From: an uncultured bacterium
Lineage (GTDB): Bacteria > Verrucomicrobiota > Kiritimatiellia > CAIKKV01 > CAITUY01
Direction of reading: 5' to 3'
Assembly: GCA_903895695.1 (NCBI GenBank)
Contig: CAITUY010000047.1
Span: forward strand, 10,397-74,396
Length of the DNA stretch: 64,000 bases
Below, piece after piece: positions 9,052 to 38,469 of this stretch (the first letter of the stretch is position 1; each line of letters starts with the position of its first letter). Below the pieces are notes generated by a model. That model had not been told where the DNA came from and ran no database searches. It saw only the letters and a list, made by a program, of their open reading frames with translations. Position numbers and translations under genes: made by a program.

Positions 9052-9266
9052 ATCAATAGTCTTCCTTTTTGCCGCTCTTCGTTACCACCACAGTCCCGGG
9101 CGGATGGAAACATCAGCCCCACATTACGCCGAAGTTGGCCCACCTTCTCTTCCACCGTCATCTTCGCCAGTAACTTCGTGATCTCCATTGTGCCGTATTC
9201 CTTGCTCCGATGCCAACTTCAGCCCGGACGCCAAGGGTGACTTCAGGCTCCGCCACCGTGCGCAAG

Positions 9267-19395: not shown

Positions 19396-20481
19396 TTATC
19401 GCTTCCGCGTCGTCGCCCCCTCAATGAACGCGGGCACCAACTCAACGGGCTTGCCGTGCAGACCGCCCAGCCGGTCCAGCACGCACTGCGCCAGGGCTTC
19501 ACCATGGGCGATAGGGTCCATCTCGACGCGGGTCAGCGGTTTGGAGAAGACCGGTCCGAGTCCCTTGTTAGCCCACGAAATAACCTGCACGTCTTCCGGA
19601 ATGCGAAGGCCGCGGGAGGCCATCGCGAGCAACGCTCCGCGGGCTGCAAAATCGTCGCCGAACCAGATCAGGTCGGGCAGCGTCGGCCCCGTCGCCAGCC
19701 AGCGCTCCACGGCCTCCAGAGCGCCGCGCTCCACCCGCTCCGGCGAGCCGTATCCGGGCAAGTCATTGAACAGAAGGTCATCGACAATCAGGCCGGCATT
19801 CCTCAGCGTGGGGCCGACGTCAAACGACGGCTTCGGATCCGTCACCTGGAGAACGCGGCGCACGCCGCACGCGAGACAATGATCGCGCAAGGCCAGCAGC
19901 ACAGCATCCCGACGCACCGCGACCGACTGCACGGCGTGCCGGGAACACCGGCTCTCGATCTGATTGAATTCGATAAAGGCGACCTCCCGCTCGGCCAGGA
20001 TGGGCTCCAGCAGAGACGGGTTGCCGTCGATCACGGCCAGCGAGACGGCATGCGTCAGCGCGGCGCGCGCTTTGGCCAGGGCCATGGTAGGTTCGACGCC
20101 GAGTTCCACGGTACTGACCAGGACGTTCGCGGCATGGAGCCGGTCAACCAGCGCGGCGCTCAACATGCTCTGGTAGTACATGCGCGCGCCGGCGATGCTC
20201 ATGTATAGCACATGCCCACGCCACGTCTTCAACTTGGTACTGCACACGGTGATGCCGGTGCGGGGACGGGGATTCAAAAGCCCCTCGCGGGTCAGGCGCT
20301 GGACCGCGTGGCGGGTCACGATTTCACTCACCTTGAGGGCCACCGCCATCTCCTCCAAATTCGGAAGCTTGGCGCCAACCTTGTATTGTCCCGTGATCAC
20401 GGCACGGCGCAATCCGTCCGTTACCTGGTCCGTCAGACTGGTTCGGCTTTGTTTCGACACTTCGAATGGCATGCTGTGCAT
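19396..20481 (-). CDS. AraR-like transcriptional regulator (GntR-type wHTH N-terminus + LacI/periplasmic-binding-protein-type sugar-binding C-terminus)
   Basis: N-terminal HTH TDGLRRAVITGQYKVGAKLPNLEEMAVALKVSEIVTRHAVQRLTREGLL, then a LacI-type ligand-binding fold. The six-frame ORF (to 20577) extends in-frame into a copy of the RHS leader repeat; the real start is probably Met33/Met36. Confidence 0.6.
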   Translation of the reverse strand: MHSMPFEVSKQSRTSLTDQVTDGLRRAVITGQYKVGAKLPNLEEMAVALKVSEIVTRHAVQRLTREGLLNPRPRTGITVCSTKLKTWRGHVLYMSIAGARMYYQSMLSAALVDRLHAANVLVSTVELGVEPTMALAKARAALTHAVSLAVIDGNPSLLEPILAEREVAFIEFNQIESRCSRHAVQSVAVRRDAVLLALRDHCLACGVRRVLQVTDPKPSFDVGPTLRNAGLIVDDLLFNDLPGYGSPERVERGALEAVERWLATGPTLPDLIWFGDDFAARGALLAMASRGLRIPEDVQVISWANKGLGPVFSKPLTRVEMDPIAHGEALAQCVLDRLGGLHGKPVELVPAFIEGATTRKR

Positions 20482-20580
20482 AGATCTAATTCCAGATTCG
20501 CACCCGTTGAAACGGGGGTATGCGGTTTTCGATCTACGCAAGGCCGTGCGGCCGAGCGGTGTGAGGTGGTAGGCCATGGT
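20479..20580 (-). repeat. truncated copy of the RHS-core 3' leader repeat (MAYHLTPLGRTALRRSKTAYPRFNGCESG…) with no attached CT domain
   Basis: ~90% nucleotide identity to the first ~90 nt of the ten cassette ORFs, including the conserved ctgaccATG start context; it diverges after the GCESG codons into the regulator gene. Confidence 0.7.
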
Positions 20581-20592
20581 TACTGCGTCAGG

Positions 20593-21072
20593 TCATTTGG
20601 CAATTGTCGAGACGCGAGGTTGAGTGTCGTAGCGGTGGCCAACCACGATCACAACATCGTCTGGCGTGCCACCCCGTCCGTCCCCTCCAACTGACATCAG
20701 CACAACTTCGCCGTTTCGTCTCACGCAGACAATGGGTCTATTCCAACCATCCACGAACCTATCGGTGTCGACCGTAACTGTCTTTAGAAGCACTGCTACC
20801 TCCTGAGTCCCCGTGACAACCGAGTGGAGCACATTCGTATGCGTTCCAAAAATATAGTCGAGATATTCCAGGTTGCGGACAGTCCGATAGTCCGCACCCT
20901 CAAGTCGCCCACCGACGAGTCGTGTGTACCGAATCGCGCACCACAGAACGACCGTTACCACCACGACCGCGACACTAATCGCTTTACCGAATGTCGCATT
21001 CCGTCCCTGTAGTATCGTCATTGCAGAGTCCACTGAAGCACGCTTCTCACGGGCCGCATCCATCTGACACAC
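20593..21072 (-). CDS. putative immunity protein (membrane-anchored) for cassette 21155..21913
   Basis: Small ORF immediately downstream of a toxin cassette on the same strand; one TM helix (ISVAVVVVTVVLWCAI); no homology recognised. Confidence 0.4.
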   Translation of the reverse strand: MCQMDAAREKRASVDSAMTILQGRNATFGKAISVAVVVVTVVLWCAIRYTRLVGGRLEGADYRTVRNLEYLDYIFGTHTNVLHSVVTGTQEVAVLLKTVTVDTDRFVDGWNRPIVCVRRNGEVVLMSVGGDGRGGTPDDVVIVVGHRYDTQPRVSTIAK

Positions 21073-21154
21073 TCACGGGCACCCCTGCTCGCGCCGATGT
21101 GACCGGCCCGACCACCCTGCATGTCAAGCCTCTGCGGCAACCTTCATACCGCGA

Positions 21155-21913
21155 CTAGAACGTCTTGTCACCGTTCGTGACTGGCCACCACGATTTCGTA
21201 AACGTCCGTGCCCCTCGATTGTCACGGTATTGGGTGACTTCGACTCCCCATTTCACCATCTTTATGACCGCCCCGCTTTCAGTACCCTTCGTACAAATAA
21301 CCTGGGTAAACATGTCAGACTTAAAATGAACGACCGGTGGATCGCGCAGTCGCACTATAACGTCCGGCCTCGGGAAATACTCATACAGGCCAGGCATATC
21401 GAGCATCATGTGATAGAATCGTTGGGGCTTGTCACTGTCGTCGTAGTAAGTGCCGCCGTGGAGGTGGTCTTTGTAGTATTCGCCCGGCGTCGGTGCTCGG
21501 CCATCGTCCCAAAACTGATAGTCGCGGGCATCCTGTTTGAAGTCGGGAAACTCACAGACGCAATCACATTTCTCATGATCTAGTTGGGCGCTGATCACGA
21601 CAACCACGATGCCCTTATAGGCGGCTGACCTTTCCAAGCCGTCTATTATCCGAATTGTAAACTTGGAGGCATTCACGCACTGTCTCAACTTGTCACTCCA
21701 ACACCCCAGCATGTCCACGCCGTTTTCACAGTCATTTTCCGCAAACTGATAACAGTTTCTGCCCCCTGCTTCCCCAATCGGATCGCGACTCACCCAGCGT
21801 CCTAGTCCTGGCGAGAAGAAACGGAAACCAGATTCGCACCCGCTGAGACGGGGGTATGCGGTTTTTGGGGTACGCAAGGTCGTGCGGCCGAGGGGTGTGA
21901 GGTGGTAGGACAT
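21155..21913 (-). CDS. orphan RHS C-terminal toxin cassette (RHS core tail + variable CT domain)
   Basis: N-terminus MSYHLTPLGRTTLRTPKTAYPRLSGCESGFRFFSPGLGRWVSRDPIGEAGGRNCYQF…DMLGCW matches the last YD repeat and DPxGL tail of RHS cores; unique 190-aa CT. Confidence 0.65.
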   Translation of the reverse strand: MSYHLTPLGRTTLRTPKTAYPRLSGCESGFRFFSPGLGRWVSRDPIGEAGGRNCYQFAENDCENGVDMLGCWSDKLRQCVNASKFTIRIIDGLERSAAYKGIVVVVISAQLDHEKCDCVCEFPDFKQDARDYQFWDDGRAPTPGEYYKDHLHGGTYYDDSDKPQRFYHMMLDMPGLYEYFPRPDVIVRLRDPPVVHFKSDMFTQVICTKGTESGAVIKMVKWGVEVTQYRDNRGARTFTKSWWPVTNGDKTF

Positions 21914-22108
21914 GGTCGACTATTCTCGTGACGGCAACTGATGGGATCGGGCTGTCCCTGCGACGCTTCGTTCAATCCCTATTCTCTATTCTTGGGCCTT
22001 CCAACCCCCGTACCCCTATCTTCTGTCTTCTCGGGCTGACACTGGCGCCCCATTATTCCACTTTGTCACCCTTGTCAGCACCCGACCCCACTCGCGGGCT
22101 ACACAGTT

Positions 22109-22444
22109 TCACACGAAGACCAACTGAAACAGAAGGAATGCAAGAAGAAGCACCGCAGGGCACAACGGGGATGCCTGCTCGCGGCGATACAGGGACATCA
22201 ACCACGCGAAACTTCCTGCAATGATCGAAACTATGGCGACAACATGGGCAGACGCTCCTGAGTGTATCTCCTTCTCAATGGTCAAGTGCAATTGATTTCG
22301 CTCCACAGAGGCGAGCGTAACGGATCTTGCGGCAAGCAAGGCACCGGCAGAGTCGTGACGTTTGCCTTCAATATCCACGATTATCGCGATCAGCAACAGA
22401 CTACAGGCCACCATGAACAACGGCTTCACGGGTGGGCACCTCAT
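22109..22444 (-). CDS. putative immunity protein (polytopic small membrane protein) for cassette 22441..23139
   Basis: ATGA start/stop overlap with the upstream toxin; 3 predicted TM segments. Confidence 0.45.
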   Translation of the reverse strand: MRCPPVKPLFMVACSLLLIAIIVDIEGKRHDSAGALLAARSVTLASVERNQLHLTIEKEIHSGASAHVVAIVSIIAGSFAWLMSLYRREQASPLCPAVLLLAFLLFQLVFV

Positions 22445-23139
22445 TGGCCAATAAGGGCGTCACCACATGCCTCCTGCGCAGAGACAGCACAGGCTTCACG
22501 TCCCACCCCAATAGGACAGTAATGGTGTGCGATCTCGTGGATCAGCAGAGATGCTAGTCCACTGCTCCCCAATTCCTTGCACTGACTTGCACATACGCCT
22601 ATGCCAAACCCAGGCAGCGTCCAAGTTGGGAAACCCAAAATACACGGAATCATCCAGTCTCCGTGGCACGTGATCGTATATCCCGGTATCCAATCGGTAG
22701 ATCCCCCTCCGCCTCCCGAGAAATCGTGACCGTGATCCTCAAACCATTTCCTGCATTTCCCCTTTGGTATGGCAGCATCGACGATTTCCGCCGCCTGCCT
22801 CACTTCCGGACAGCACTTACAGCCGCCAAATTCATGCAGACCTTCTGGGTCTGTCAGTACAGTCGGTTGATTATGCACGAAGAGATACCGCGGCTCCTGC
22901 GACTGATGCTTGATCCGTTCTCGATCCTCTCGCCGGATTCCCCTGCTTCGCGTTTGCAGAAGTGCCTCATCCCCAATTGGGTCGCTGCTCATCCACCGCC
23001 CCATTCCTGGCGAGAAGAAACGGAAACCAGATTCGCACCCGCTGAGTCGGGGGTAAGCGGTTTTCGGGCTACGTTCGTACGCGTACTCCGGCGAGGTACG
23101 CAAGACCGTGCGTCCGAGGGGTGACAGGTGGTAGGGCAT
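22441..23139 (-). CDS. orphan RHS C-terminal toxin cassette with HExxH (zinc metallopeptidase-like) CT domain
   Basis: Leader MPYHLSPLGRTVLR…(8-aa insertion SPEYAYER)…GCESGFRFFSPGMGRWMSSDPIGD…DPEGL; the CT contains LIHEIAHHYCP (HExxH). Confidence 0.6.
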   Translation of the reverse strand: MPYHLSPLGRTVLRTSPEYAYERSPKTAYPRLSGCESGFRFFSPGMGRWMSSDPIGDEALLQTRSRGIRREDRERIKHQSQEPRYLFVHNQPTVLTDPEGLHEFGGCKCCPEVRQAAEIVDAAIPKGKCRKWFEDHGHDFSGGGGGSTDWIPGYTITCHGDWMIPCILGFPTWTLPGFGIGVCASQCKELGSSGLASLLIHEIAHHYCPIGVGREACAVSAQEACGDALIGQ

Positions 23140-23240
23140 GGTCAGTGCGTCAGTTCATTTGCCGATTATCAAGATGCTGGGTGGTCGGCCCAGGTTCAAT
23201 TCGGGAAGCCCGTCCGGTCATAAATGGTCGGCAACAGTTT

Positions 23241-24062
23241 CTACTCGCCCGCCCCTTTGATCGGGGACTGCTGGCCCGCCTCCCAATCGCCTCCTATCTC
23301 TGGAGGCACTTCAAATGACTCTACCGTTTCATTTGTCGTACCAAGTAGACTGCGAAAACGGTCACGCAACGCGTTCATTCCACCTGTTGTTTGATTGAGG
23401 TGCTCAAGAACCAAAGGCCAACTTACTTTTTCCTCATCCGACTTCGTCCAGTTCGTCACGCCAAGATCGAACACCGAATTCACCGGGTCATACGGTTCGG
23501 TATAGGCACAGAACCAATTTGTCACTGATGTTTGCCGCAAGAACAAGAGATACACCTCCCCCGAAACCTTCAAATGAAGCGAACTTGGAGGGTTGGCAAT
23601 GAGGGCCCTCCGAATCTCATTAGTAACTCCGCGCCTCAGATAGAACATATTTATCGCCTCGCCATCGCGGGCGTTCTTGAGACCTTCGATCACGTCAATC
23701 CTGGCCCTACACACTTCAAACGGGTATCCACGTAGCGTTGGATATGTCAGGAATATGCACCCCCCCGTCGCGCCAAGCCGCGCAACCCTCCCCACGACAA
23801 CTTTGTCTGCCCTCCGCACAAGTGTCTCCGCACTCTCGCGTTGCTCACCCCTCGCAAGTGCATACGAGCCACCCACGCCGTAGCAGACTACCCCAATCAC
23901 GAATGATGCCACCATGTGTCTTAGGCTTGCCATTTCGTCTATCATCGTCCTTGTCACTCTGGCCACATAGACCTGCCGCATGCAGGAAGTCTGTTCGATG
24001 CTAATGATCAGTAAATGCTTCTTGTCACTTGAGTTGGGGAGTTGCCACTGCAGCAGTTCCAT
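23241..24062 (-). CDS. putative immunity protein for cassette 24008..24742 (start likely internal, ~23981 or 23945)
   Basis: Directly downstream of the toxin cassette; hydrophobic segment MVASFVIGVVCYGVGG; the called N-terminus overlaps the toxin's 3' end. Confidence 0.4.
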   Translation of the reverse strand: MELLQWQLPNSSDKKHLLIISIEQTSCMRQVYVARVTRTMIDEMASLRHMVASFVIGVVCYGVGGSYALARGEQRESAETLVRRADKVVVGRVARLGATGGCIFLTYPTLRGYPFEVCRARIDVIEGLKNARDGEAINMFYLRRGVTNEIRRALIANPPSSLHLKVSGEVYLLFLRQTSVTNWFCAYTEPYDPVNSVFDLGVTNWTKSDEEKVSWPLVLEHLNQTTGGMNALRDRFRSLLGTTNETVESFEVPPEIGGDWEAGQQSPIKGAGE

Positions 24063-24742
24063 CTCGCCATCAGTGAGCGGTGGATGACATCACCAGAGGG
24101 AGGCGGCAATATTGGATCTTCATTTACTACCCCAGTGTCTCCACCTGAAGGCGAACGTGGATCGTGTGGCCAGTTTGATGTATCAAGCCTATCGTAGTAG
24201 GCGACAGTACCCGTATAGAGCACGTATCCTTTGGAGCATGGCAACCCTCCCGGATCGCTAAAGGCCCATGTATCACGGGGAGGGTCGTCCATGCTCGCAT
24301 CGACGATAGACCACGCCTCCCAATAGTGTTGGTCGGGATCATTGATGGGGTGACCTTGGCAGTCGGTAATTGAAGACGTCATGGTCATCTCTTGAACGAC
24401 GGAACCCCATAGAGGCGAAGGACCTCGCACTTTCCACAACACTGACCACGAAAAGTGGCCACAGTCATCCGGAATGAACACGAGGTCATCCACCGAAAAG
24501 GACAACGAAGTCCCCCCGAGAATAGTCTGCTTACCCGTTCTATCGCACTTTTGCACACTATTGTTCTCGCAGATTGAGAACAGGTTGAGTCCACCTCTTT
24601 CCCCAATCGGATCTCGCGACGCCCACCGCCCGATCCCCGGCGAGAAGAAACGGAAACCAGATTCGCACCCGGTGAGACGGGGGTATGCGGTTTTCGATCT
24701 ACGCAAGGCCGTGCGTCCGAGGGGTGTCAGGGAGTAGGTCAT
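24008..24742 (-). CDS. orphan RHS C-terminal toxin cassette
   Basis: Leader MTYSLTPLGRTALRRSKTAYPRLTGCESGFRFFSPGIGRWASRDPIGERGGLNLFSI…; unique CT. Confidence 0.65.
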   Translation of the reverse strand: MTYSLTPLGRTALRRSKTAYPRLTGCESGFRFFSPGIGRWASRDPIGERGGLNLFSICENNSVQKCDRTGKQTILGGTSLSFSVDDLVFIPDDCGHFSWSVLWKVRGPSPLWGSVVQEMTMTSSITDCQGHPINDPDQHYWEAWSIVDASMDDPPRDTWAFSDPGGLPCSKGYVLYTGTVAYYDRLDTSNWPHDPRSPSGGDTGVVNEDPILPPPSGDVIHRSLMARWNCCSGNSPTQVTRSIY

Positions 24743-24757
24743 GGTCAGCGCGTCAGT

Positions 24758-25207
24758 TCATTCGTCAATTGTGGAAACATGCCCCTGTGGCTTCCGATCT
24801 CTCAGGTTGACGCTCATCAGATAATCCGTAATTGCGGGATTATCGCCACTCCGGGAGAACTCTTGGACTCGATCCCAATACCTCGATCCTTCTACTATCG
24901 CAAGAAGCGAACTAGCACGTTTCGACTTAGCTTCAATGAGTATCTGATAGACAGGGACAAGCAACAATGTTGCCGTCTCACGTTCACGTCGGTCTTTAGA
25001 ACGCAGTTTCGTCGTCAAATACCGAATTCCAGAATCGTTCACAAATGGGAGCACAAGTCTCGCGACTTCTGCCGCGTCAATCTCACCAGGAGACTTCCTC
25101 AAGGACCAGTAGTCATTCGCTTCTGACATGGCCTTGTCGTATCGGTGGGCCACACACCCTGTCATCACAATCCACAGAGGCAAGAGCAAGAACAGCGTCA
25201 TCTTCTT
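24758..25207 (-). CDS. putative immunity lipoprotein for cassette 25227..25889 (the six-frame ORF extends artefactually to 25546)
   Basis: Probable start MKKMTLFLLLPLWIVMTGC (lipobox LxxC) ~20 nt downstream of the toxin stop. Confidence 0.45.
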   Translation of the reverse strand, partial: KKMTLFLLLPLWIVMTGCVAHRYDKAMSEANDYWSLRKSPGEIDAAEVARLVLPFVNDSGIRYLTTKLRSKDRRERETATLLLVPVYQILIEAKSKRASSLLAIVEGSRYWDRVQEFSRSGDNPAITDYLMSVNLRDRKPQGHVSTIDE

Positions 25208-25226
25208 CATGGGGATTGGGTTCCTA

Positions 25227-25889
25227 CTAATTTGAATTAGTATCGTCCCAATCAGTTCCCAAGTCCTCGAACGGCGTACAGGTTTCGCCTTGGGGGCAAC
25301 ACTGGCTAGACTCACCCGTGGACTCAAAATGGTAGTACTGTTTGCCCCCTGGCCCTTTACCCAGGGAGACCTTAGTTTTGCGGTAGTGCCTCCAGAAGAA
25401 CCAATAACGGAAACTAATCCACATTTCTTTCGCAGGAGACATGCAGATGCATTGGTCCCAACCATACGGAATGCCAGGCCCGCCCGGCGAGATCTCCCCT
25501 CTGAATGATCTTGTCTTGCACTGGCCATCGCCCCCGCAAGTCGCACCCTCGCTTAAGCAGTACCGCTGAAGAGGAGCATTGTTACATGCACAACCGTTAT
25601 CCTGCATCACGAGGCCAAGCAGATCCCAACGAGATTCTCCATTGTTACTGAGAAAATCATAATCATTCGCCCCTCTGGAAACGGTCATGGCGTCAACCCG
25701 TTTGCGGACGCTCTGAGCCACAAATGCAAATTTGAAGAAAGTGTGCTCCCACATCGGATCCCGGCTGCACCAGCGACCCACGCCCGGCGAGAAGAAACGG
25801 AAACCAGATTCGCACCCGTTGAAACGGGGGTATGCGGTTTTCGCGGTACGCAAGGCCGTGCGTCCGAAGGGTGTGAGGGAGTAGCTCAT
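25227..25889 (-). CDS. orphan RHS C-terminal toxin cassette (Cys-rich CT)
   Basis: Leader MSYSLTPFGRTALRTAKTAYPRFNGCESGFRFFSPGVGRWCSRDPMWE…; CT rich in Cys/Gly (…GCACNN…CGGDGQCKT…QCICMSP…CCPQGETC). Confidence 0.6.
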   Translation of the reverse strand: MSYSLTPFGRTALRTAKTAYPRFNGCESGFRFFSPGVGRWCSRDPMWEHTFFKFAFVAQSVRKRVDAMTVSRGANDYDFLSNNGESRWDLLGLVMQDNGCACNNAPLQRYCLSEGATCGGDGQCKTRSFRGEISPGGPGIPYGWDQCICMSPAKEMWISFRYWFFWRHYRKTKVSLGKGPGGKQYYHFESTGESSQCCPQGETCTPFEDLGTDWDDTNSN

Positions 25890-25899
25890 GGTCAGCGCC

Positions 25900-26574
25900 C
25901 TACCAACTTCTCAACCACAGGTTCGATAGGAAATAGTCAGAGACGATCCCGCGTTGCGTGTAGTACACAGCCAAATACCAACCCTCCAATGCAGACGCCC
26001 CTCCCTCCGGATGACGGTTCTGAACGACATCCGCGAAACTCACGCATGCTTTGCCGATCCCCTTTTCCAGGCCATAGTCATCGGCATCAGGACCGAAGAT
26101 CGTCTTGATAGTCGACATACGCGTTCCAACACGCAGCGACTTACTGTCTAGTAGCGAAACACAGAATGCCAGCTTGTCGTGGCGGTTGCTGCATCCCAGG
26201 TACTGCACCTTCAGTATCTCCGCGCTGGTGTCGGCCTTCGTGAGGTGACCGTATACCTCGCCTAAGACGGGCGCCTTACTTACCGCCCTGACGGCATGTA
26301 TGCCTTCCGGACTTTGAACCGTGTCTTGACCCGCTGCATGGCGGGTGAGTGCCGCGCAACCAAAGCCAATCATAATCATGGCCGCAACTCCGCATGCGTC
26401 CAGCGCACACCGAAGTATCGTTGAGGCCAAGTGACCGTCACTATCTCGGTCAGTTGTCATCAGGCGTAGGTATCTGGTGTTTGGGCGTTTGAATGCAGGT
26501 GGCTCCGTATATGGTGGCAGGAAAGCCGGGGGGCTTCGGCATCTTTCTGCATATGGTGAACCATTGCTCTTCAC
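25900..26574 (-). CDS. putative immunity protein for cassette 26450..27235 (start likely internal, ~26460)
   Basis: Downstream partner ORF; signal/TM-like stretch ILRCALDACGVAAMIMIGFGCAAL. Confidence 0.4.
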   Translation of the reverse strand: MKSNGSPYAERCRSPPAFLPPYTEPPAFKRPNTRYLRLMTTDRDSDGHLASTILRCALDACGVAAMIMIGFGCAALTRHAAGQDTVQSPEGIHAVRAVSKAPVLGEVYGHLTKADTSAEILKVQYLGCSNRHDKLAFCVSLLDSKSLRVGTRMSTIKTIFGPDADDYGLEKGIGKACVSFADVVQNRHPEGGASALEGWYLAVYYTQRGIVSDYFLSNLWLRSW

Positions 26575-27235
26575 CAGGTCTGGCCATTTGGTCGGCGTAT
26601 ATGTAATAGCCCTTCTGGATCAGGACGTAGTTCCAGTATGAGTCATTATCGGTTCTTGCACTCGTGATCGCGTGACAACTCACGCCACCATCTGGAAGCT
26701 TCTTCGGTTCCCCATCCTTCCATTTCCCCTGTTTGGCCCACGTCAGGCAGCATGGTTTCGCCACGAGTTTTTTGCATTTCGCGCAGTCTTTTCGCGCATC
26801 GTCCTCGGTAAGCCAACACTTCGTGTCAGGCCAGTTTTCCGGCCAGAACTTGCCATCCCCAGCAATGCAGGTAACCCCAACGCAACCACGATCAAGTTGC
26901 CGCTTTACGTACGCATCCACGCTGACACCGTGGTCTTTTAACCAGTCCTCAAACTGGTCTCGGTCCATGTTGATACACTGATCCACAGGCGGTTCACTCT
27001 GTTGCTCACTGGGTTCTGAGGCCAGCCCGAGACGATCACGATAGCCCAGAGGTTGGTTGCTGAGGCATATGTATCGATTCATGCCATGTCTGGCACTAAT
27101 CGGATCCCTCGACGCCCACCTTCCCATCCCTGGCGAGAAGAAACGGAAACCAGATTCGCACCCGGTGAGACGGGGGTATGCGGTTTTCGATCTACGTAAG
27201 GCCGTGCGTCCGAGAGGTGTGATGGAGTAGGCCAT
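26450..27235 (-). CDS. orphan RHS C-terminal toxin cassette (Lys/Cys-rich CT)
   Basis: Leader MAYSITPLGRTALRRSKTAYPRLTGCESGFRFFSPGMGRWASRDPISARHGMNRYICL…DRLGL. Confidence 0.65.
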   Translation of the reverse strand: MAYSITPLGRTALRRSKTAYPRLTGCESGFRFFSPGMGRWASRDPISARHGMNRYICLSNQPLGYRDRLGLASEPSEQQSEPPVDQCINMDRDQFEDWLKDHGVSVDAYVKRQLDRGCVGVTCIAGDGKFWPENWPDTKCWLTEDDARKDCAKCKKLVAKPCCLTWAKQGKWKDGEPKKLPDGGVSCHAITSARTDNDSYWNYVLIQKGYYIYADQMARPGEEQWFTICRKMPKPPGFPATIYGATCIQTPKHQIPTPDDN

Positions 27236-27296
27236 GGTCAGCGGGTTAGAGCGTTTGCGTCTTGCGAGAATTGGTGCAGTTGCCTGTTGGCTTTAT

Positions 27297-27743
27297 TCAA
27301 TGTTCGACTTCCGCATCACCAAGGCCGGCTCCCGGCCGCTTGGCAGCGACACCAAACAAGCGAAGCAGGCCAATAATCTTGCTGTCGCGGACTACCTCAT
27401 CATCGGCTTCGCCCATAGATAGAACGACTCCACTCAAACTGCTCAGGGCCAAGGCCCAGAAGTCCCTGCCGCGGAGCCCATGAAGCACTTTGTCCTCAAC
27501 AGGAATCGACGCTTTCCCATGCTGAATGTCATCTGCCAGGTACCTGACGAGCGTCTCAGTTGCAGCACCTTTCGTGACCCCTTGCCGAAGCTGGACTGTC
27601 ACATAAAACGCATGGTGCATCACAACGCACCTCTCCCCTGAAAACAAGTCGTGCGGAGCCTGAGGCCTGGCGCTGTAACACCCTCCAAGCAGCAGAGCGA
27701 AGAGCAAAGGCGTGCCTTGCCGCAACAACCTTTGTTGATTCAT
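27297..27743 (-). CDS. putative immunity lipoprotein for cassette 27740..28492
   Basis: ATGA overlap with the toxin stop; lipoprotein signal LLFALLLGGC. Confidence 0.5.
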   Translation of the reverse strand: MNQQRLLRQGTPLLFALLLGGCYSARPQAPHDLFSGERCVVMHHAFYVTVQLRQGVTKGAATETLVRYLADDIQHGKASIPVEDKVLHGLRGRDFWALALSSLSGVVLSMGEADDEVVRDSKIIGLLRLFGVAAKRPGAGLGDAEVEH

Positions 27744-28492
27744 AGCTCATCGACCCCCAGTTGCACGCTGAACCATCCGCGGGGGGTGCCCTTCCACCGC
27801 ATGTATCCTTTCTTCGGTATGCTACTGGCATTCCACGTCGCAGTACCGGCAAAGCCCCACCATGTCTGTACTGATGGTGCCTCTTCGACATAGTCATGCG
27901 CCTGAAACCAATACGTTTGCGGACTAACGGGACGCGTTCGACTCACATCGGCGTTGTGCGGATCATCAGTAAGCCACCATCCTCCGTAGAATCCTGGATT
28001 GGGCTTAGCCGAACCGTAGTCATCAGGCAGGACTATATCGTCATTAGGAGGCGAGTCAGAATCGTCGCGCAACTCTGCGCCTTGGTGCAGATGACAGCCG
28101 CTGACATCGCCCCCTGCGCTATGGGTCACAACCGCCTTGACGCCGACACCGAAATCCCAAAGATACCCTGGCCTATTCGGATCTGTCGGTTGATATTTCA
28201 ACTCTCTCGTTGCGCTTGTCCAAGAGAGGTCGATTCGACAGTTGCCGGGGTCTATCGCACAGATGCAACACGCCTTCCTCAGGCCCAGATAATCTAGCGC
28301 AGTGTCCGGGCAGTTCCTAATGAAGCAAAGCAAGTTGCCTCCGCCTTTCTCGCCGATCGGATCGCGGCTCATCCAGCGTCCGATCCCCGGCGAGAAGAAA
28401 CGGAAACCAGATTCGCACCCGTTGAAACGGGGGTATGCGGTTTTCGATCTACGCAAGGCCGTGCGGCCGAGGGGTGTGAGGGAGTAGGCCAT
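27740..28492 (-). CDS. orphan RHS C-terminal toxin cassette
   Basis: Leader MAYSLTPLGRTALRRSKTAYPRFNGCESGFRFFSPGIGRWMSRDPIGEKGGGNLLCF…DYLGL. Confidence 0.65.
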   Translation of the reverse strand: MAYSLTPLGRTALRRSKTAYPRFNGCESGFRFFSPGIGRWMSRDPIGEKGGGNLLCFIRNCPDTALDYLGLRKACCICAIDPGNCRIDLSWTSATRELKYQPTDPNRPGYLWDFGVGVKAVVTHSAGGDVSGCHLHQGAELRDDSDSPPNDDIVLPDDYGSAKPNPGFYGGWWLTDDPHNADVSRTRPVSPQTYWFQAHDYVEEAPSVQTWWGFAGTATWNASSIPKKGYMRWKGTPRGWFSVQLGVDEL

Positions 28493-28556
28493 GGTCAGCT
28501 ATTCTCGTGGAGGAAACCAATACGATCAGGATGTCCTGCGACGCTGCGCTGAATCC

Positions 28557-29060
28557 TCATTCTGTATTCTTGGGTCTGCCCCGTGACTGCGCTTCTTCTG
28601 AAGCCGCAGCACCAAACCCATTGCCCTCAAGTCCAGGCGCTGACGATGTCACCACAGTGACGATATCGTCTTCCGTTCCGAAAACACGGTCGGGACCCGC
28701 CGATGACACCGTGCAGACATTCTGACGGACTTGGCACCTGAAGGGAGACCCCCACGGATCGGGTAATATGGCTTCCTCACGGGGCATCAGATCGGAGAGG
28801 GACTCGGGCCACTGCCCATGTCGAGCATGGTAGTCCGCCGCCACGTCGCCCAGCCGTTTCACGTAGCGCAGCACGCCTTCTGCTGCCTCTCTATTCCGTT
28901 GCGCCCTGACTGCTCTCACTGCATCGGCACTCCACAACCCAACGAGCCCAATGACCAGACACGCAACTCCGATCAGAAGCACGACTCGGTGTCTATTGAG
29001 CCATAAATGGATGGTTCCGCCCGCAGGGTCTGCGCACGTTTTACTGTCGGCCATAGGCAT
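28557..29060 (-). CDS. putative immunity protein with GspG/type-II-pseudopilin-like fold (degenerate, no GFTLIE motif); six-frame ORF extends to 29198
   Basis: TM helix VVLLIGVACLVIGLVGLW, then …AEGVLRYVKRLGDVAADYHARHGQWPESLSDLMP…LPDPWGSPFRC…SSAGPDRVFGTEDDIV, which parallels the GspG signature (…Y.LDNG.YP…GL.AL…DPWGNPY…S.G.DG..GG.G.DADI). Confidence 0.4.
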   Translation of the reverse strand: MPMADSKTCADPAGGTIHLWLNRHRVVLLIGVACLVIGLVGLWSADAVRAVRAQRNREAAEGVLRYVKRLGDVAADYHARHGQWPESLSDLMPREEAILPDPWGSPFRCQVRQNVCTVSSAGPDRVFGTEDDIVTVVTSSAPGLEGNGFGAAASEEAQSRGRPKNTE

Positions 29061-29814
29061 CGTGTAGCATCCATTCGTCTTCCAGCTCCCCGAACACCGA
29101 GAAACTCGGGTCCTGAAACAAGTTTCTCTTCCATGCATAGAAGTTGAGCCACCGTACCCAGATCCACTTGTTTGCCGGGTTGCCATCAGGCAAAACATTG
29201 AACGTGTAATACTTCGCCATCTTGACCGTCATCTTGCACGACCCCTCACACTCACATCGACCCTGTGAGTCAGCACACCCGCATCGCCATTTACAGTCGG
29301 CGAACAGTGACACCTGCCAGTTCCCCGCGTACGCAAGGCCAAACAACGATACGGCTGCCGGCATTACATCATCGAACACCTCTGCCGAATGCGGTGGTGC
29401 GGGCAATCGGATATTCTCGATTGCGGCGCCCATGCATCGAAACCGTGTTCCCAAAGCCTTTTCTACCGTCAATCGCCAATCCTTCATGTGCCACGACGTC
29501 TTAAGGCGAGAAAGCACGTCGTCTGAAAGTCTCCCGCCTTCTGGGGCGAACGAGAAGTAGTTGATGAACATCTGCCAAGGACCATCGAATGTCCACTCGA
29601 CCAACCCTGCGGGGTCGGCCCTATCCGGCGAGTCATTGGCACAGAAAACATATGCGTCGAGTCCGCCCATCTCCTCAAGCGGATCGCGGCTGATCCAGCG
29701 TCCGAGTCCCGGCGAGAAGAAACGGAAACCAGATTCGCACCCGGCGAGACGGGGGTATGCGGTTTTCGATCTATGCAAGGCCGTGCGGCCGAGGGGTGTC
29801 AGGTGGTAGGGCAT
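29041..29814 (-). CDS. orphan RHS C-terminal toxin cassette (six-frame ORF begins at 29925; conserved start at 29814)
   Basis: Conserved leader begins at the internal Met: MPYHLTPLGRTALHRSKTAYPRLAGCESGFRFFSPGLGRWISRDPLEEMGGLDAYVF…DPAGL; Cys-rich CT (CKWRCGCADSQGRCECEGSCK). Confidence 0.6.
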   Translation of the reverse strand: MPYHLTPLGRTALHRSKTAYPRLAGCESGFRFFSPGLGRWISRDPLEEMGGLDAYVFCANDSPDRADPAGLVEWTFDGPWQMFINYFSFAPEGGRLSDDVLSRLKTSWHMKDWRLTVEKALGTRFRCMGAAIENIRLPAPPHSAEVFDDVMPAAVSLFGLAYAGNWQVSLFADCKWRCGCADSQGRCECEGSCKMTVKMAKYYTFNVLPDGNPANKWIWVRWLNFYAWKRNLFQDPSFSVFGELEDEWMLHDAYGRQ

Positions 29815-30137
29815 GGTGAGGGTCCAGGTTCGTACGGCCAGCGCACGGTTCCCGATCCATATGGTGAGGTTATTACAGCCCCTCGACGGAGGAACACCGT
29901 CGTCTTCCATGCAACGCTGTCCCACTCTGTTGCAGGATGATGGGCACTCAGACTCATGATCCCATTCACATTTTCACCGATAGTCACGCTACCATCGGGA
30001 TCGCCCTCCAACTCGGCCGCATTCGTACCAGGAAACGTTATGCTCTGAACCACTCCATACAGGCGACCCTCTGACATGACGCGGTCACCGACGCAGACAA
30101 CCTCTCCCGTATGATACCGGAAGCAATCGCGCTTCAC
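29799..30137 (-). CDS. putative immunity protein (small beta-rich) for cassette 30134..30847
   Basis: ATGA overlap with the toxin stop; homologous in outline to 30909..31151. Confidence 0.45.
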   Translation of the reverse strand: MKRDCFRYHTGEVVCVGDRVMSEGRLYGVVQSITFPGTNAAELEGDPDGSVTIGENVNGIMSLSAHHPATEWDSVAWKTTVFLRRGAVITSPYGSGTVRWPYEPGPSPCPTT

Positions 30138-30847
30138 GGTGCGACACCTCCGCCAAGGATTGGTTCAACCCAAGGCCCTTCTCCCGGCCACGGCGTATCT
30201 CCACACGTCACATCCAACGCCAATGACTGTCGCTTGCAGGCACATGGTTCTGTCGGGTGCGTCACAGGGAGTTGCACAACATAGGCGTGGTGCGTGTGCG
30301 TGCCCGGACACCCGTGCCCAGCGACAAAACATGTCCTGTTCATTGTGTATCCCGCGAGCGGGATACATGGCAGACAAAACGGCAGATGCGGGACGGTCTT
30401 TGTCTGAGTTACCGTTTGCGGCACGGAGTTCACACCTGTATTCATGCATTGACAGTCCCGTTCCCGGTAAACATCGTATGTCTCGGTATAGGTTCCCGTC
30501 CGCGTGTACACCAAGTATGTCACGCCGCCGGCAATGAGCGTGCCAGCAGCCACCCATGGACCCCATTCCGGCAATGTGACGCCTGCAAGAATCTCAGCAC
30601 AGATCTCCCCTATAGTTGGTATTGCGATTCCCGCCTGGCCCAAGGGATCAAGGAGGAATATGGGGGTGTTCTGAACGAACGCGTACCGGTTGACTCCGCC
30701 ACTCTCCGCAACCGGATCGCGCGACGCCCACCTTCCTAGCCCTGGCGAGAAGAAACGGAAACCAGATTCGCACCCGTTGAAACGGGGGTATGCAGTTTTC
30801 GATCTACGCAAGGCCGTGCGGCCGAGAGGTGTGAGGTGGTAGGCCAT
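30134..30847 (-). CDS. orphan RHS C-terminal toxin cassette (CT with hydrophobic segment; paralogous to 31175..31822)
   Basis: Leader MAYHLTPLGRTALRRSKTAYPRFNGCESGFRFFSPGLGRWASRDPVAESGGVNRYAF…DPLGQ; CT shares CLPCIP…H.H…C.CK…GP…GGG(V/I)AP* with the next cassette. Confidence 0.6.
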   Translation of the reverse strand: MAYHLTPLGRTALRRSKTAYPRFNGCESGFRFFSPGLGRWASRDPVAESGGVNRYAFVQNTPIFLLDPLGQAGIAIPTIGEICAEILAGVTLPEWGPWVAAGTLIAGGVTYLVYTRTGTYTETYDVYRERDCQCMNTGVNSVPQTVTQTKTVPHLPFCLPCIPLAGYTMNRTCFVAGHGCPGTHTHHAYVVQLPVTHPTEPCACKRQSLALDVTCGDTPWPGEGPWVEPILGGGVAP

Positions 30848-30908
30848 GGGTAGCTGCAGGCACCGCGCCCTGCCTGATCGTTCATTGCTGCTTCGCGTGA
30901 TTCATCAC

Positions 30909-31151
30909 TTAGGATTTCGGCCGCTTTGTTAGGCTATGATGGTGCCCAAATGGGTGTAGAACCAAAATGCCGTCCTCATACATGACCAGAAGACCTCCCG
31001 TGTCTTCACAGTCAAATGAGGCCGCCGATTGGGTGCCAGGCATGCATACCGCCTCAACTCGTCCCGGTCTCCCGTCAATCATCACAAGATCTCCGTTCCT
31101 CACAGATTCTTGCGAATCGCCGTATTTCGAACTGAGAGTGTCATCAGGCAT
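30909..31151 (-). CDS. putative immunity protein for cassette 31175..31822 (six-frame ORF extends to 31403 over the toxin 3' end)
   Basis: Likely start MPDDTLSSKYG…; …RNGDLVMIDGRPGRVEAVC… resembles …GEVVCVGDRVMSEGRLYGVV… in 29799..30137. Confidence 0.35.
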   Translation of the reverse strand: MPDDTLSSKYGDSQESVRNGDLVMIDGRPGRVEAVCMPGTQSAASFDCEDTGGLLVMYEDGILVLHPFGHHHSLTKRPKS

Positions 31152-31174
31152 TTCCGTTGCGTTGCTGAATGTTA

Positions 31175-31822
31175 CTAAGGCGCAATGCCTCCGCCCTGAG
31201 CAGGGCCGGCTTCCGGTGCCAAAACCCCAGGCAATGGGTCGGGCAGTACCTCTTTCCAGAAACACTTGCACCCTCCGACTGCCGGACTCTGCAACATCAC
31301 TAGCATGTGGGAATGCGGCGTGGGAATTCCGTTGTGGGCTGGCGAGGGCGGCAAGTCCACGCGATACGCAATGGACCCAACGACTGGTAGGCACGGCAGA
31401 CACCCTTGAGTTCTTCGTTTACAGCGGTCACATCTCTTCATTGCCTCCGCAATACCATCCGCTACGGCGTCCGCGAAACTTGCTGCGGCCGCTGCAATAT
31501 CGTGGAGTGTTTGTTGTCCTGCAGGCGATTGCGCCCAGGCTTCGGCGGTCACACACACCGCAATGGTCCCGATTACCAAGAGTACGACTGCGTCATCCGC
31601 TATTACAATTCGTCCATCCTTGTCGTTCTTATCCGTGGGGTTGTTCGACACGAAGCCATAGAGATTCCGCCCCCCGAGTTCTCCCATAGGATCGCGTGAA
31701 ATCCACCTCCCTGTTCCTGGCGAGAGGAAACGGAAACCAGATTCGCACCCGCTGAGTCGGGGGTATGCGGTTTTCCATCTACGCAAGTCCGTGCGTCCGA
31801 GGGGTGTCAGGTGGTAGGACAT
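31175..31822 (-). CDS. orphan RHS C-terminal toxin cassette (paralogous CT to 30134..30847)
   Basis: Leader MSYHLTPLGRTDLRRWKTAYPRLSGCESGFRFLSPGTGRWISRDPMGELGGRNLYGFVSNNPTDKNDKDG. Confidence 0.6.
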   Translation of the reverse strand: MSYHLTPLGRTDLRRWKTAYPRLSGCESGFRFLSPGTGRWISRDPMGELGGRNLYGFVSNNPTDKNDKDGRIVIADDAVVLLVIGTIAVCVTAEAWAQSPAGQQTLHDIAAAAASFADAVADGIAEAMKRCDRCKRRTQGCLPCLPVVGSIAYRVDLPPSPAHNGIPTPHSHMLVMLQSPAVGGCKCFWKEVLPDPLPGVLAPEAGPAQGGGIAP

Positions 31823-32220
31823 GGTTAGAGGGTAAGATCGTCCAGCGATATCAGTCTTGTTTCAGCGACGTTCTGCGATGCCATTTCGTCCAGCAACTAC
31901 CATCCCGGCCTCGCCCCCGACTGCGGTTCACGCTCCCGCCCCGTAGATTATGCGGCCGGTCGGGGCGCTCACTTCCGCCCCAGCCGCCGACAACTCCACC
32001 AGCCCCAACCACCGTTGAAATGTTCATCCGAACAGGTCCGTCGCGCCGACGCCACAACGATCAGTTCTGTTTAGGGTACGGGAGCGCGGCGGCGGAAAAG
32101 CGGCTGTTTTGTAGTAACCCATGGGACGAAGTCCTTATGGGTGGGATTCTAGGAAAGAGGGGGCACGGAAGAAAGGCAAATCAGGCAAAAAAGTGGGCAA
32201 AAAACGGGGAGGCGGAAACC

Positions 32221-32436
32221 TCAACCCGGCGTCGGAGTTTGGCCCTTGGCCCGGTCGAATATCTCGTCCACCGTCTGCCCGTCGTAGAGGCGCCGGGAGA
32301 CATCCACGTAGTCGGTCGGTTCGCGGTGGATCAGGGTGAGAAACCGAAACGCACCTGTTGCACCCAAGGCCTTGTTGAGGACCTCAATGCCGCTCAGGCG
32401 CAGTTCGTTATCGGTCATGACTTGGCTTGTGCTCAT
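32221..32436 (-). CDS. small protein downstream of the PIN gene, possible antitoxin/partner
   Basis: 71 aa, 5 nt after the PIN-domain ORF on the same strand; no family recognised. Confidence 0.3.
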   Translation of the reverse strand: MSTSQVMTDNELRLSGIEVLNKALGATGAFRFLTLIHREPTDYVDVSRRLYDGQTVDEIFDRAKGQTPTPG

Positions 32437-32440
32437 ATCC

Positions 32441-32938
32441 TCACCATCTCTTCTGCACGTAGTCTACAGGATTAATGACCAGAAGCGCAACCGGCAAACG
32501 GCCAGCCTTGGACACGATCTCGTCATCACAGGTCACAAACCACGCTGCTTTCGCGTGTTCGGCAGCAGCAACGTGCAAGGCATCCTTGGCCGACAGCCCC
32601 GCCACGGCCTGAATCCGAGCCGCGGATATGCGAATGGGTTCTTCTGGGCCTATTCGGACGCGGCAGATTGCGGCAAGGCGGACGACTTCCTGTGCACGGT
32701 CAACGAAAGGACACACCCGGTTCTCGTCCTCGTGCATAAACGACCACGCCAATTCCACCTCACCGTTCTCGGCATCCTCGAAGATCTTCTCGCAGGCTTC
32801 CGCCTCCAAACGGATACGATGCTGCCGGGAGTCGTCAAACCCCCGCTGGAAGCAGTTGTAGTCGAGATAGATGAGTTCCGCCATGTCGAGTACCCCGTGC
32901 CGAACGTGGTTACGATAGTATGGACTCTTCCTGGTCAC
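32441..32938 (-). CDS. PIN-domain protein (VapC-like ribonuclease candidate); likely start MAELIYLDYN (~32881)
   Basis: N-terminal MAELIYLDYNCF… and acidic residues spaced as in PIN/VapC folds. Confidence 0.45.
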   Translation of the reverse strand: MTRKSPYYRNHVRHGVLDMAELIYLDYNCFQRGFDDSRQHRIRLEAEACEKIFEDAENGEVELAWSFMHEDENRVCPFVDRAQEVVRLAAICRVRIGPEEPIRISAARIQAVAGLSAKDALHVAAAEHAKAAWFVTCDDEIVSKAGRLPVALLVINPVDYVQKRW

Positions 32939-37147: not shown

Positions 37148-37157
37148 GTCGCCAACC

Positions 37158-37574
37158 CTAGGCGCGAATTTCCCAACGGGCCACGAAGTTTTGTAACGTA
37201 AGACCCACATCGCGCCAGACCCCACGCCAGTCGCGGATTCCCGCGATAACGACGTGTCGTAACGCAAAACCATCCAAGTCTCGGAACCTCACACCGACCG
37301 TGTTTTGACCGGCGCGATGAATTGGAAGCAGAATGTCCACCGTGAACGCCTTCCGCCTGTCCTGCCGCCAGTAGAACGGATGAAGCCGCCGCCAGGCCTG
37401 GCTGCGGTCGATGTCCTTCTTGAAGTGGTCGGGGTTCTTCCGCCGCCATTGCCGGCAGTTCTCCCGGTTACGCGCCCGCTGGCACACCCGACGCGGGCAG
37501 TACCGCTGGTGCCAGGCGTTGTGGGGTTCAGGCTGGAACAACTTCCGGCAATGCGGGCAGCGCAGCGGTTTCAT
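37158..37574 (-). CDS. small Zn-ribbon (CxxC…CxxxxC) DNA-binding-like protein
   Basis: MKPLRCPHCRKLF…YCPRRVC; basic; first gene of the element operon. Confidence 0.4.
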   Translation of the reverse strand: MKPLRCPHCRKLFQPEPHNAWHQRYCPRRVCQRARNRENCRQWRRKNPDHFKKDIDRSQAWRRLHPFYWRQDRRKAFTVDILLPIHRAGQNTVGVRFRDLDGFALRHVVIAGIRDWRGVWRDVGLTLQNFVARWEIRA

Positions 37575-38467: not shown

Positions 38468-38469
38468 CG

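Follow-up and report, generated by a model that had tools for sequence, protein, structure and literature searches.

The window analysed here, 64,000 nucleotides (nt) of contig CAITUY010000047.1 from an uncultured bacterium of the Kiritimatiellia, contains an orphan array of polymorphic toxins. The locus is of a known kind; what is new is that its cassettes stand alone, that each opens with a leader repeat carrying the start codon, that stops in three frames are gathered at the junction before this leader, and that a recombinase/primase module belongs to the locus. We consider it probable that the array consists of nine complete stand-alone 'mini-Rhs' toxin/immunity cassettes and a terminal leader stub, downstream of a conserved gene module. 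The usual view of orphan toxin cassettes is that they are silent spares, relevant only after recombination into a full-length rhs gene. The family described here, which occurs in several uncultured lineages of the Planctomycetes-Verrucomicrobia-Chlamydiae (PVC) type, appears to be built as autonomous genes, with a conserved start, a closed upstream frame and a private peptide on a self-cleavage module.

The leader repeat and its upstream junction

A 38-nt repeat core, AAAACCGCATACCCCCGNNTCNNCGGGTGCGAATCTGG, was matched ten times in the window when ≤3 mismatches were allowed, always between 20492 and 31774 and against an expectation of 0; repeat finding returned the same ten copies, spaced 975-1603 nt apart. 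The relevant genes are all on the minus strand, and the leader start codons lie at 31822, 30847, 29814, 28492, 27235, 25889, 24742, 23139, 21913 and 20577. Nine of these copies are full leaders, and the tenth (20577) is a stub. The guanine-plus-cytosine (GC) content of the array is 0.53-0.58, against about 0.65 in the flanks. An earlier note on this DNA had counted 11 copies within 20479-31825; the repeats are real, but that interval holds ten of them, a truncated eleventh at 32122 and a diverged tail of the main-rhs type at 39270 both lying outside it.

When the copies were aligned together with their flanks, conservation began abruptly at the CC/ATG edge: mean pairwise identity was 31% in the 60 nt upstream, 90.3% (range 85-95%) from nt -2 to 105, and 60.5% from nt 106 to 156. 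The identity of about 90% reported in the earlier note was thus borne out, and no long upstream conservation was found. The start codon is invariant, but the wider context ctgaccATG(G/T/A)CC, which had been described as invariant, is not; CCATG alone is common to all copies, 'ctgacc' precedes the ATG in five of ten and T[GA]Acc in seven of ten, and codon 2 is GCC, TCC, CCC, ACC or AGC. The copies at 20577, 23139 and 24742 do have about 30 nt of upstream sequence in common (caattgNcNaatgaNctgacgc), including an in-frame TGA that lies six codons before the ATG, with five codons between.

The in-frame upstream stop proved more general than the three copies for which it had been claimed. It is present 3-20 codons upstream, without an alternative start in between, in nine of the ten copies, the exception being 29814, where the frame stays open upstream of the ATG as far as a GTG at 29925. 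Stops in all three frames occur within 30 nt of the ATG in four window copies. Junction statistics were compiled for 20 leaders from the window and related loci: T[GA]A occupies positions -5 to -3 in 14 of them, against 2.5% in the background; a mean of 1.75 of the three frames is closed within 30 nt, against 0.72 in controls; and all three are closed in 6 of the 20, against 0.6% in the background. The stop block TGAnnTGAnnnnnTRAccATG is found at 24742, 23139 and 20577 in the window and in another lineage (contig L016). The preceding open reading frame (ORF) terminates within the stop block at 24742 and 20577 (in both cases at a TGA 16 nt ahead of the leader ATG, in frame at the former) and at 25889 (11-13 nt ahead), and it overlaps the ATG at 29814.

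A Shine-Dalgarno motif was absent before every leader examined; it is present at several other genes here, among them the Zn-ribbon ORF, imm0 and a gene for a 945-aa (amino acid) glycosidase. Because stops in all frames abut the ATG and the Shine-Dalgarno motif is absent, termination-reinitiation would be the most likely mode of translation, the junction acting as a frame-independent stop-restart site. To this extent the stop enrichment and the missing motif agree with the reinitiation junction suggested in the earlier note, which we keep as a conditional reading. In the interval from 19.3 to 33 kb, a sigma-70 promoter scan found fewer promoter-like sites than in shuffles, and a terminator scan gave background levels only. 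No inverted repeats around the leader, or around the type B element described below, were consistent between copies.

The leader opens short reading frames that encode the end of an Rhs cocoon

The nine full copies open ORFs of 215-261 aa of a common build: a 28-aa N-terminal peptide, the last ~42 residues of an Rhs/TcC cocoon and a mostly unrelated tip, followed by a small putative immunity ORF. Residues 27-71 correspond to positions 32-76 of TIGR03696 (RHS repeat-associated core domain) in all nine ORFs (E 2e-12 to 5e-5); the 32.5-bit cut-off was passed by seven, with c23139 (30.9) and c25889 (23.8) falling below it. When the leader profile was compared with TcC/Rhs chains in the PDB, the match was confined to positions 29-70, the last ~42 residues before the self-cleavage site, in structures that include 4igl YenC2, 4o9x TccC3, 7q97 RhsA and 8cp6 Tse5. 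Both catalytic Asp residues of the autoprotease are kept (R-D44-P and D67-x-x-G70), D44, P45 and D67 being invariant in 35 family members; unlike these structures, the ORFs lack the remaining cocoon (>600 residues of YD repeats). Like Rhs orphan modules in general, they thus retain a C-terminal piece of the Rhs core with a DPxGL-type cleavage motif.

The N-terminal peptide has the consensus M-x-Y-[HS]-L-T ... K-T-A-Y-P-R-x-x-G-C-E-S-G. Its first 26-28 residues (MAYHLTPLGRTALRRSKTAYPRFNGCESG) gave no match in Pfam, NCBIfam or PDB; to the eye they look like a degenerate last YD repeat with a 'PFRFTG..D.ETG' motif after it. In L006 and L013 leaders (for example L013 3067-3160) the motif (A/G)-C-E-(S/A)-G is duplicated internally, TGCGAATCTGG occurring twice, which hints that a duplicated '..ETG' region of the Rhs tail gave rise to the leader-specific part. 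We rejected L-[STA]-G-C as a lipobox, since a hydrophobic h-region is missing and the family does not conserve the Cys.

The tips are mutually unrelated, except that those of c31822 and c30847 share 32% identity over 84 aa, and each is followed by a small co-oriented ORF. Tips and small ORFs together gave 0 Pfam family matches; the designations 'toxin' and 'immunity' are therefore taken from context.

Homologues begin at the leader methionine

A profile built from eight leaders was run against 1.84 billion representative proteins. Twenty-eight proteins matched from leader position 1; all are short (94-296 aa), and 24 of the 28 begin exactly at the leader Met. In the top 150, the match of the 12 proteins of >500 aa (Rhs proteins of 1450 and 1853 aa among them) sets in only at position 20-31, and in this search no long Rhs protein had the N-terminal 26-28 residues. 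Because the matches from position 1 are all short and long Rhs proteins match the cocoon tail only, the comparison supports stand-alone frames, as the earlier note had proposed; the end of homology at the CC/ATG edge, between copies and between strains, agrees with this.

We aligned 35 family members that are 43-71% identical to the first leader of the window. All of them have M1, at least 90% keep Y/F3 and T18, and the N-terminus evolves as a protein motif, M-[GSA]-[YF]-[HYFS]-[LIA]-[TK]. In L004, from a 49.5%-GC genome, M-S-Y-F-I-T and R-R-S-K-T-A-Y (RRSKTAY.R) are kept with synonymous changes, which argues that selection acts on the leader at the protein level. These comparisons are good evidence for a genuine start of the gene, kept by selection, at the leader ATG in this family. 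The classical orphan, a fragment that has lost its 5' part and has no start of its own, is not what was found here: the ATG is invariant, stops lie upstream, and homologues share the Met.

The leader DNA pattern and back-translated protein patterns found no relative in 185,579 species genomes, exact-protein look-ups of the window proteins found none on record, and this conserved start-codon/leader module is not described in the libraries searched.

Recombination within the leader

Codons 1-34 contain 21 columns with an invariant degenerate amino acid, of which only 6 use more than one codon; this part is conserved as DNA, and the frozen codons include the non-preferred GCA, GGG, TCT and CGT. 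In codons 35-52, by contrast, all seven such columns use 2-5 codons, and conservation is at the protein level only (Fisher p=0.0014 vs codons 1-34). Such variation as the leader has is blocky, mostly nonsynonymous (codons 2, 4, 12, 15-16 and 22-24) and reassorted among copies, with four gametes in 27 of 36 informative site pairs within 105 nt.

L015, a contig of a sister strain, comes from metagenome series BUCK21-1, which also has a fragment (L008) 100% identical to the window GntR gene. Compared with c24742, it has 0 mismatches over coding sequence (CDS) nt 72-511, 10 mismatches over nt 4-71 and no homology upstream of CCATG. Since the two are identical from nt 72 onward and differ before it, recombination has taken place recently inside the leader. 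Likewise, P0001 is a chimera of a c25889-type leader 5' part with the c28492 tail and C-terminal tip (CT). Exchange inside the leader is thus ongoing, between copies and between strains, and the recombination junction with continuing gene conversion envisaged in the earlier note was upheld by the frozen synonymous sites, the four-gamete counts and the L015 breakpoint. The fine mosaic inside the leader favours gene conversion over Xer-aided exchange.

Conservation of synonymous sites in the blocks AAAACCGCATACCCCCG and CGGGTGCGAAKCTGGYTTCCG extends to lineages whose primase/recombinase genes are only ~75% identical in DNA. Because conversion within a genome alone fails to account for blocks conserved across lineages, we suggest either a shared horizontal cassette pool, captured via the blocks, or a site for a sequence-specific protein.

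Array layout, the neighbouring gene module and related loci

Coordinates of the cassettes and their neighbours are collected in Table 1. Outward from the array follow the head-of-array block, the PIN pair, the two recombinases, the primase-like gene, the Cys-rich ORF, the 166-aa ORF and the headless tail. Both recombinases fall below the XerC/XerD equivalog cut-offs and are co-oriented with the array. No full-length rhs gene is present in the 64-kb window; in L006 and L016 one lies just upstream of the module.

Table 1. Features of the toxin array and its surroundings (positions in the window; aa, amino acids; HMM, hidden Markov model)
Feature	Coordinates	Strand	Details
GntR/Peripla_BP_3 regulator	19396..20481	-	host gene at array end; native start probably Met 20481 or 20472
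Terminal leader stub	20491..20577	-	leader-specific 5' module only (CDS nt 1-86/87, end ...GCGAATCTGG); type A three-frame stop block upstream; leader HMM positions 7-99
Cassette 9	20578..21913	-	leader 21809-21913, type B element before it; toxin ORF 21155-21913 (252 aa); putative immunity ORF 20593-21072
Cassette 8	21914..23139	-	leader 23008-23139, type A junction; toxin ORF 22441-23139 (232 aa, HEIAHH motif); putative immunity ORF 22109-22444
Cassette 7	23140..24742	-	leader 24638-24742, type A junction (three-frame stop block upstream); toxin ORF 24008-24742 (244 aa); putative immunity ORF 23241-24062
Cassette 6	24743..25889	-	leader 25785-25889; toxin ORF 25227-25889 (220 aa); putative immunity ORF within 24758-25546
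Cassette 5	25890..27235	-	leader 27131-27235; toxin ORF 26450-27235 (261 aa, identical to P0005); putative immunity ORF within 25900-26574
Cassette 4	27236..28492	-	leader 28388-28492, ~90-nt type B element before it; toxin ORF 27740-28492 (250 aa); putative immunity ORF 27297-27743
Cassette 3	28493..29814	-	leader 29710-29814; toxin ORF 29041-29814 (257 aa from conserved ATG); putative immunity ORF within 28557-29198
Cassette 2	29815..30847	-	leader 30743-30847; toxin ORF 30134-30847 (237 aa); putative immunity ORF 29799-30137, 16-nt overlap with next leader
Cassette 1	30848..31822	-	leader 31718-31822; toxin ORF 31175-31822 (215 aa), TIGR03696 positions 32-75; putative immunity ORF within 30909-31403
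Head-of-array block	32070..32182	-	promoter-like TAGAAT and first ~52 nt of special first leader (MGYYKTAAF..., ATG 32122), truncated in window
PIN-domain ORF and 71-aa partner	32441-32938 and 32221-32436 (32221..32938)	-	variable accessory slot, toxin-antitoxin-like; same pair in L016
XerC/D-like tyrosine recombinase B	32910..33896	-	328 aa
XerC/D-like tyrosine recombinase A	33871..34827	-	318 aa
Primase-like (DnaG/toprim-related) P-loop protein	34772..37273	-	833 aa; homologues carry PF27228
Cys-rich (Zn-ribbon-like) ORF	37158..37574	-	138 aa; strong Shine-Dalgarno motif; first gene of conserved module
Putative immunity ORF of headless tail	37967-38467	-	166 aa
Headless main-rhs-type tail and CT	38470-39270	-	266 aa, MVTYIPYYRLIFFSPGTGRW...; leader HMM positions 102-160

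The gene order, the block of ~115 nt and a first leader of the form MGYY[AKT]T recur in four lineages, represented by the window, L006/L007, L013/L014 and L016/L017. L006 has, in succession, a full-length rhs gene, an immunity gene, the Cys-rich ORF, the primase-like gene, recombinases A and B, an accessory gene, the block, a toxin that begins MGYY[AT]T and more leader toxins; the overlap of L007 with this locus is confined to the array, L016/L017 have the same order, and in L013/L014 it can be followed from the recombinase B end onward. The block (GATTT.CCTTCCTTC...TAGAATCC..CCCATAGGAC...ATGGGYTACTAC) always opens the MGYY[AKT]T first leader and lies at 32070-32182 (minus strand) in the window, 8622-8733 in L006, ~1648-1738 in L013 and ~11960-12070 in L016. 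The main-rhs tails of L006 are homologous to the leaders over only ~64 nt, at 80% identity. When the left boundary of the module was compared between the window and L006, no homology was found upstream of the Zn-ribbon gene.

The diverged module at 37967-39270, whose rhs body is gone, lies at the left edge of the low-GC island, with a GHL10-like gene directly upstream, and its tail is of the main-rhs type (cf. L006 ETGLHYYGFRFFHPGIGRW). Complementary half sites at the two island ends (HMM positions 7-99 at 20577 and 102-160 at 39270) were considered as the integration signature of a circular element. This reading was downgraded because 39270 has a main-rhs-type tail, and the homology of these tails to leaders begins only at that point in any case.

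At the opposite end, the stub is joined in frame, without a stop, to the GntR regulator, so that the longest ORF (19396-20577) has 32 foreign N-terminal residues. Homologues of the regulator, which bear names from Lentisphaerae or Kiritimatiellae and so make a PVC lineage probable, are 362-372 aa long, and the native start is therefore placed ~32-35 codons further in. An empty site was also sought among them: L008, the only near-identical contig, begins within the gene, and synteny is absent from the next relatives (62% identity).

The primase-like protein has numerous homologues (988 matches with E<=1e-10 among 8,000 candidates scored), from several phyla; no relative was found in viral contigs. 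In a distant analogue of the locus on a Janthinobacterium lividum plasmid (L018, NZ_CP139977.1) such a homologue lies between an Rhs gene and a XerC gene, and small ORF pairs follow, one of them including an Imm26 protein, in an array without the leader repeat. The 3' part of the toprim gene is repeated there after the array (9002-9297 vs 15890-16185, 87%).

Comparison with known systems

An integron has a recombinase/promoter module at one end, a distinct first site, and promoterless co-oriented cassettes bounded by a repeated site. The present locus resembles it in the end module, the distinct first site, the promoterless co-oriented cassettes with their repeated sites and the presence of one more site than cassettes. 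It differs in having no IntI-type integrase, the two recombinases scoring 83 and 82 bits with TIGR02249 (integrase_gron) against a cut-off of 265 bits and finding their best models, also below cut-off, in XerC/XerD. Nor does it have an attC structure, which would be an imperfect palindrome with R''/R' core boxes and a poorly conserved sequence: the repeats are ~90% identical and lie within the ORF at its 5' end, only a small 8-bp hairpin without covariation is predicted in them, and no RYYYAAC/GTTRRRY pair was seen by inspection. The recombinases are moreover co-oriented with the array, and evidence of single-strand recombination was not found.

A close parallel is with the orphan rhs-CT/rhsI modules that follow rhs genes (Poole et al. 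2011, PMC3150448; Koskiniemi et al. 2014, PMC3967940), which share the tandem co-oriented pairs of tip and (here putative) immunity gene, the polymorphic tips, and a piece of Rhs core with a DPxGL-type junction as the recombination substrate. Unlike those, the modules here all begin at the same nucleotide, with a conserved ATG and a 28-residue peptide foreign to full-length Rhs, and they hold only ~42 core residues. The position downstream of a full-length rhs gene, which is typical of orphan modules, is seen in L006 and L016 but not in the window, where the rhs body is missing; homology to the main-rhs tail, as judged in L006, is short and ~80%. In Salmonella, Rhs-CT/immunity pairs are expressed internally and act as type II toxin-antitoxin-like modules (PMC7043789), a precedent for a protein of core tail and CT made apart from the Rhs shell, from conserved sequence just 5' of PxxxxDPxGL. 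There, an internal promoter and a CTG/ATG within the continuous rhs frame are used; here, stops delimit the frame, the Met is family-wide and no promoter was detected, although the ATG and the closed frames would be compatible with expression apart from a shell.

Tyrosine recombinases have also been placed beside such arrays, as XerC/D genes adjoining polyimmunity loci (Zhang et al. 2012, PMC3482391) and in the rAID loci (acquired defence between bacteria, associated with a recombinase) of Bacteroidales, which combine a tyrosine recombinase with an array that has conserved intergenic motifs (PMC12247911). The present locus likewise has XerC/D-type recombinases next to short, co-oriented, low-GC genes with a repeated motif. 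The rAID loci, however, hold orphan immunity genes, with toxins absent or fragmentary, and one recombinase and are defined in Bacteroidales; here the pairs of toxin and putative immunity ORFs are intact, the repeat lies inside the toxin CDS, two recombinases are accompanied by a primase-like gene, and related contigs have an rhs gene ahead of the locus.

A model of the locus and alternatives to it

We propose that the leader (~105 nt) delimits its frame by upstream stops and an invariant ATG, and that it may be translated by termination-reinitiation coupling to the preceding ORF in a co-oriented operon. It encodes a 28-residue peptide, found on short proteins only, joined to the last ~42 residues of the cocoon with the autoprotease Asp pair; because the peptide is joined to the cleavage module, any tip placed downstream would be made as peptide, cleavage module and toxin. 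The same leader serves as a recombination handle, exchange between copies and strains keeping them ~90% identical while reassorting leaders and tips. The anatomy of the cassettes, conservation of the leader as DNA, recent recombination inside it, conserved synteny with the recombinase/primase module, the enrichment of upstream stops and the family-wide start codon are established at the sequence level. Self-cleavage of the products, toxin and immunity roles and any role of the recombinases are what we infer from these features.

Several points weigh against this model. The 'starts' recorded in databases are predictions of gene callers, which choose whatever ATG comes first behind a stop. Coupling cannot be general, since several cassettes have 60-200 nt between the end of the upstream ORF and the ATG, and a missing Shine-Dalgarno motif is equally expected of untranslated DNA. 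The synonymous-site conservation of AAAACCGCATACCCCCG and CGGGTGCGAAKCTGG between lineages is not explained by gene conversion within a genome. When leader and tail were modelled by AlphaFold2 with the 35-sequence alignment, a pLDDT (predicted local distance difference test) of 54 and no secondary structure were obtained; as there is no confident fold, the cocoon-less protein may be non-functional by itself.

This lack of a predicted autonomous fold would suit classical silent orphans, that is, displaced 3' ends of rhs with a fortuitous ATG, expressed only once they are recombined onto a full-length rhs gene. Modules of that kind with a retained core are well documented and can be activated by recombination (PMC3150448, PMC3967940), the autoprotease motif of the tail normally acts inside the cocoon, and the missing Shine-Dalgarno motif points the same way. 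We nevertheless hold this explanation to be improbable, given that the N-terminal 26-28 residues occur on no long Rhs protein among the 1.84 billion representatives searched, that the Met is conserved in diverged short homologues and that the CC/ATG edge is identical in all copies and strains. The window has no full-length rhs gene, the short homology of main-rhs tails to leaders in L006 (~64 nt at 80%) makes a poor substrate for homologous recombination, and three-frame stop enrichment is hard to explain in silent DNA. Still harder to sustain, and in our estimate very improbable, is that the nucleotide conservation stems from a structured RNA, be it an mRNA leader or a regulatory element, or from an RNA or ORF antisense to the toxin-gene start. 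Non-preferred codons (GCA, GGG, TCT, CGT) are indeed frozen across lineages, most copies are predicted to form a small hairpin, CGCA[TACC]CCCG-loop-CGGGTGCG, and the antisense frame is open through the leader. RNAalifold on 18 copies, however, gave 8 pairs with 0 compensatory changes, the existing changes breaking pairs; single-sequence folds of the leader as RNA or single-stranded DNA were inconsistent, promoters and terminators are not enriched, and the antisense ORF has no conserved start. The whole window had no Rfam match at gathering thresholds. ARAGORN found no tRNA or tmRNA in it, so the leader is not a tRNA-derived att site.

The alternative to which we give most room, while still doubting it, is integron-like: the leader would be an att-type site within the CDS, and the Xer-like pair would excise [tail-CT-immunity-leader 5' module] and insert it beside its own genes, at the special first leader; the crossover would take place near CDS nt 87, between GCGAATCTGG and TTTCCG. 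The two-recombinase/primase module and the distinct MGYY[AKT]T first leader do head the array in four lineages; the stub consists of exactly the leader-specific module, up to nt 86/87, the point from which main-rhs-type and leader-type tails share homology; the L015 breakpoint lies between nt 71 and the tail; and the blocks around the proposed crossover are conserved at synonymous sites across lineages. There is also a dif-like imperfect palindrome (11-6-11; GCATACCCCCG-NNTCNN-CGGGTGCGAAT) whose centre varies, and polyimmunity loci beside XerC/D genes were reported earlier (PMC3482391). A single fixed crossover, however, would not yield the mosaic of four gametes in 27 of 36 site pairs within 105 nt. 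The first-leader stub of the window is cut at ~nt 52 rather than 87, the L013 array ends in a tail fragment rather than a leader stub, attC-like R''/R' boxes are absent, and the recombinases run in the direction of the array and do not reach the XerC/XerD and integron-integrase cut-offs. In L004, leader-type cassettes have no recombinase within 10 kb, and the primase-like family is so widespread (>900 matches) that it may be a mobile element landing in such loci. The notion of an 'Rhs-tip integron', with site-specific recombination inside a CDS and one ~105-nt site that would give the three-frame stop, the start, the peptide and the autoprotease module, and so be recombination site and translation-start module at once, is likewise one that we consider less likely than not.

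If the cassettes are indeed autonomous genes, as we propose, the question raised is whether 'cocoon-less' Rhs tails are made and, if so, whether they act as addiction modules, are loaded in trans or serve some other purpose. The leader is a demonstrable recombination hotspot behind an Xer-like/primase-like module that recurs downstream of rhs genes, and the locus thus offers a concrete test case for the long-standing idea that XerC/D-type recombinases build polymorphic-toxin and polyimmunity arrays.

Other observations on the array and the window

The type B element (~90 nt; ...CAGACCCAAGAATAGAGAATAGGGATTGAACG.AGCGTCGCAGGGACATCCTGATCG...) lies at ~21924-22010 and ~28503-28590 on the minus strand. 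It stands directly 5' of two window leaders and of all three complete leaders in L001 (two copies) and L003.

The leader of cassette 8 (c23139) has a 27-nt in-frame insertion at 23074-23100 (…RTSPEYAYER…), which resembles the variant leader …NTPEYGYER… of metagenome contig L002 (~590-620); the likeness suggests that a second leader subtype is in circulation.

Among the putative immunity ORFs, those at 28557-29198, 37967-38467 and 20593-21072 (minus strand) show weak mutual similarity (E ~3e-4), and the first has a pseudopilin-like C-terminal motif (...DPWGSPF...GPDRVFGTEDDI).

The sole very large ORF in the window (45972-51929, minus strand) encodes a Gly-rich, highly repetitive, secreted-looking protein of 1985 aa, unrelated to Rhs, whose repeats are like the beta-strand repeats of autotransporter-type proteins.

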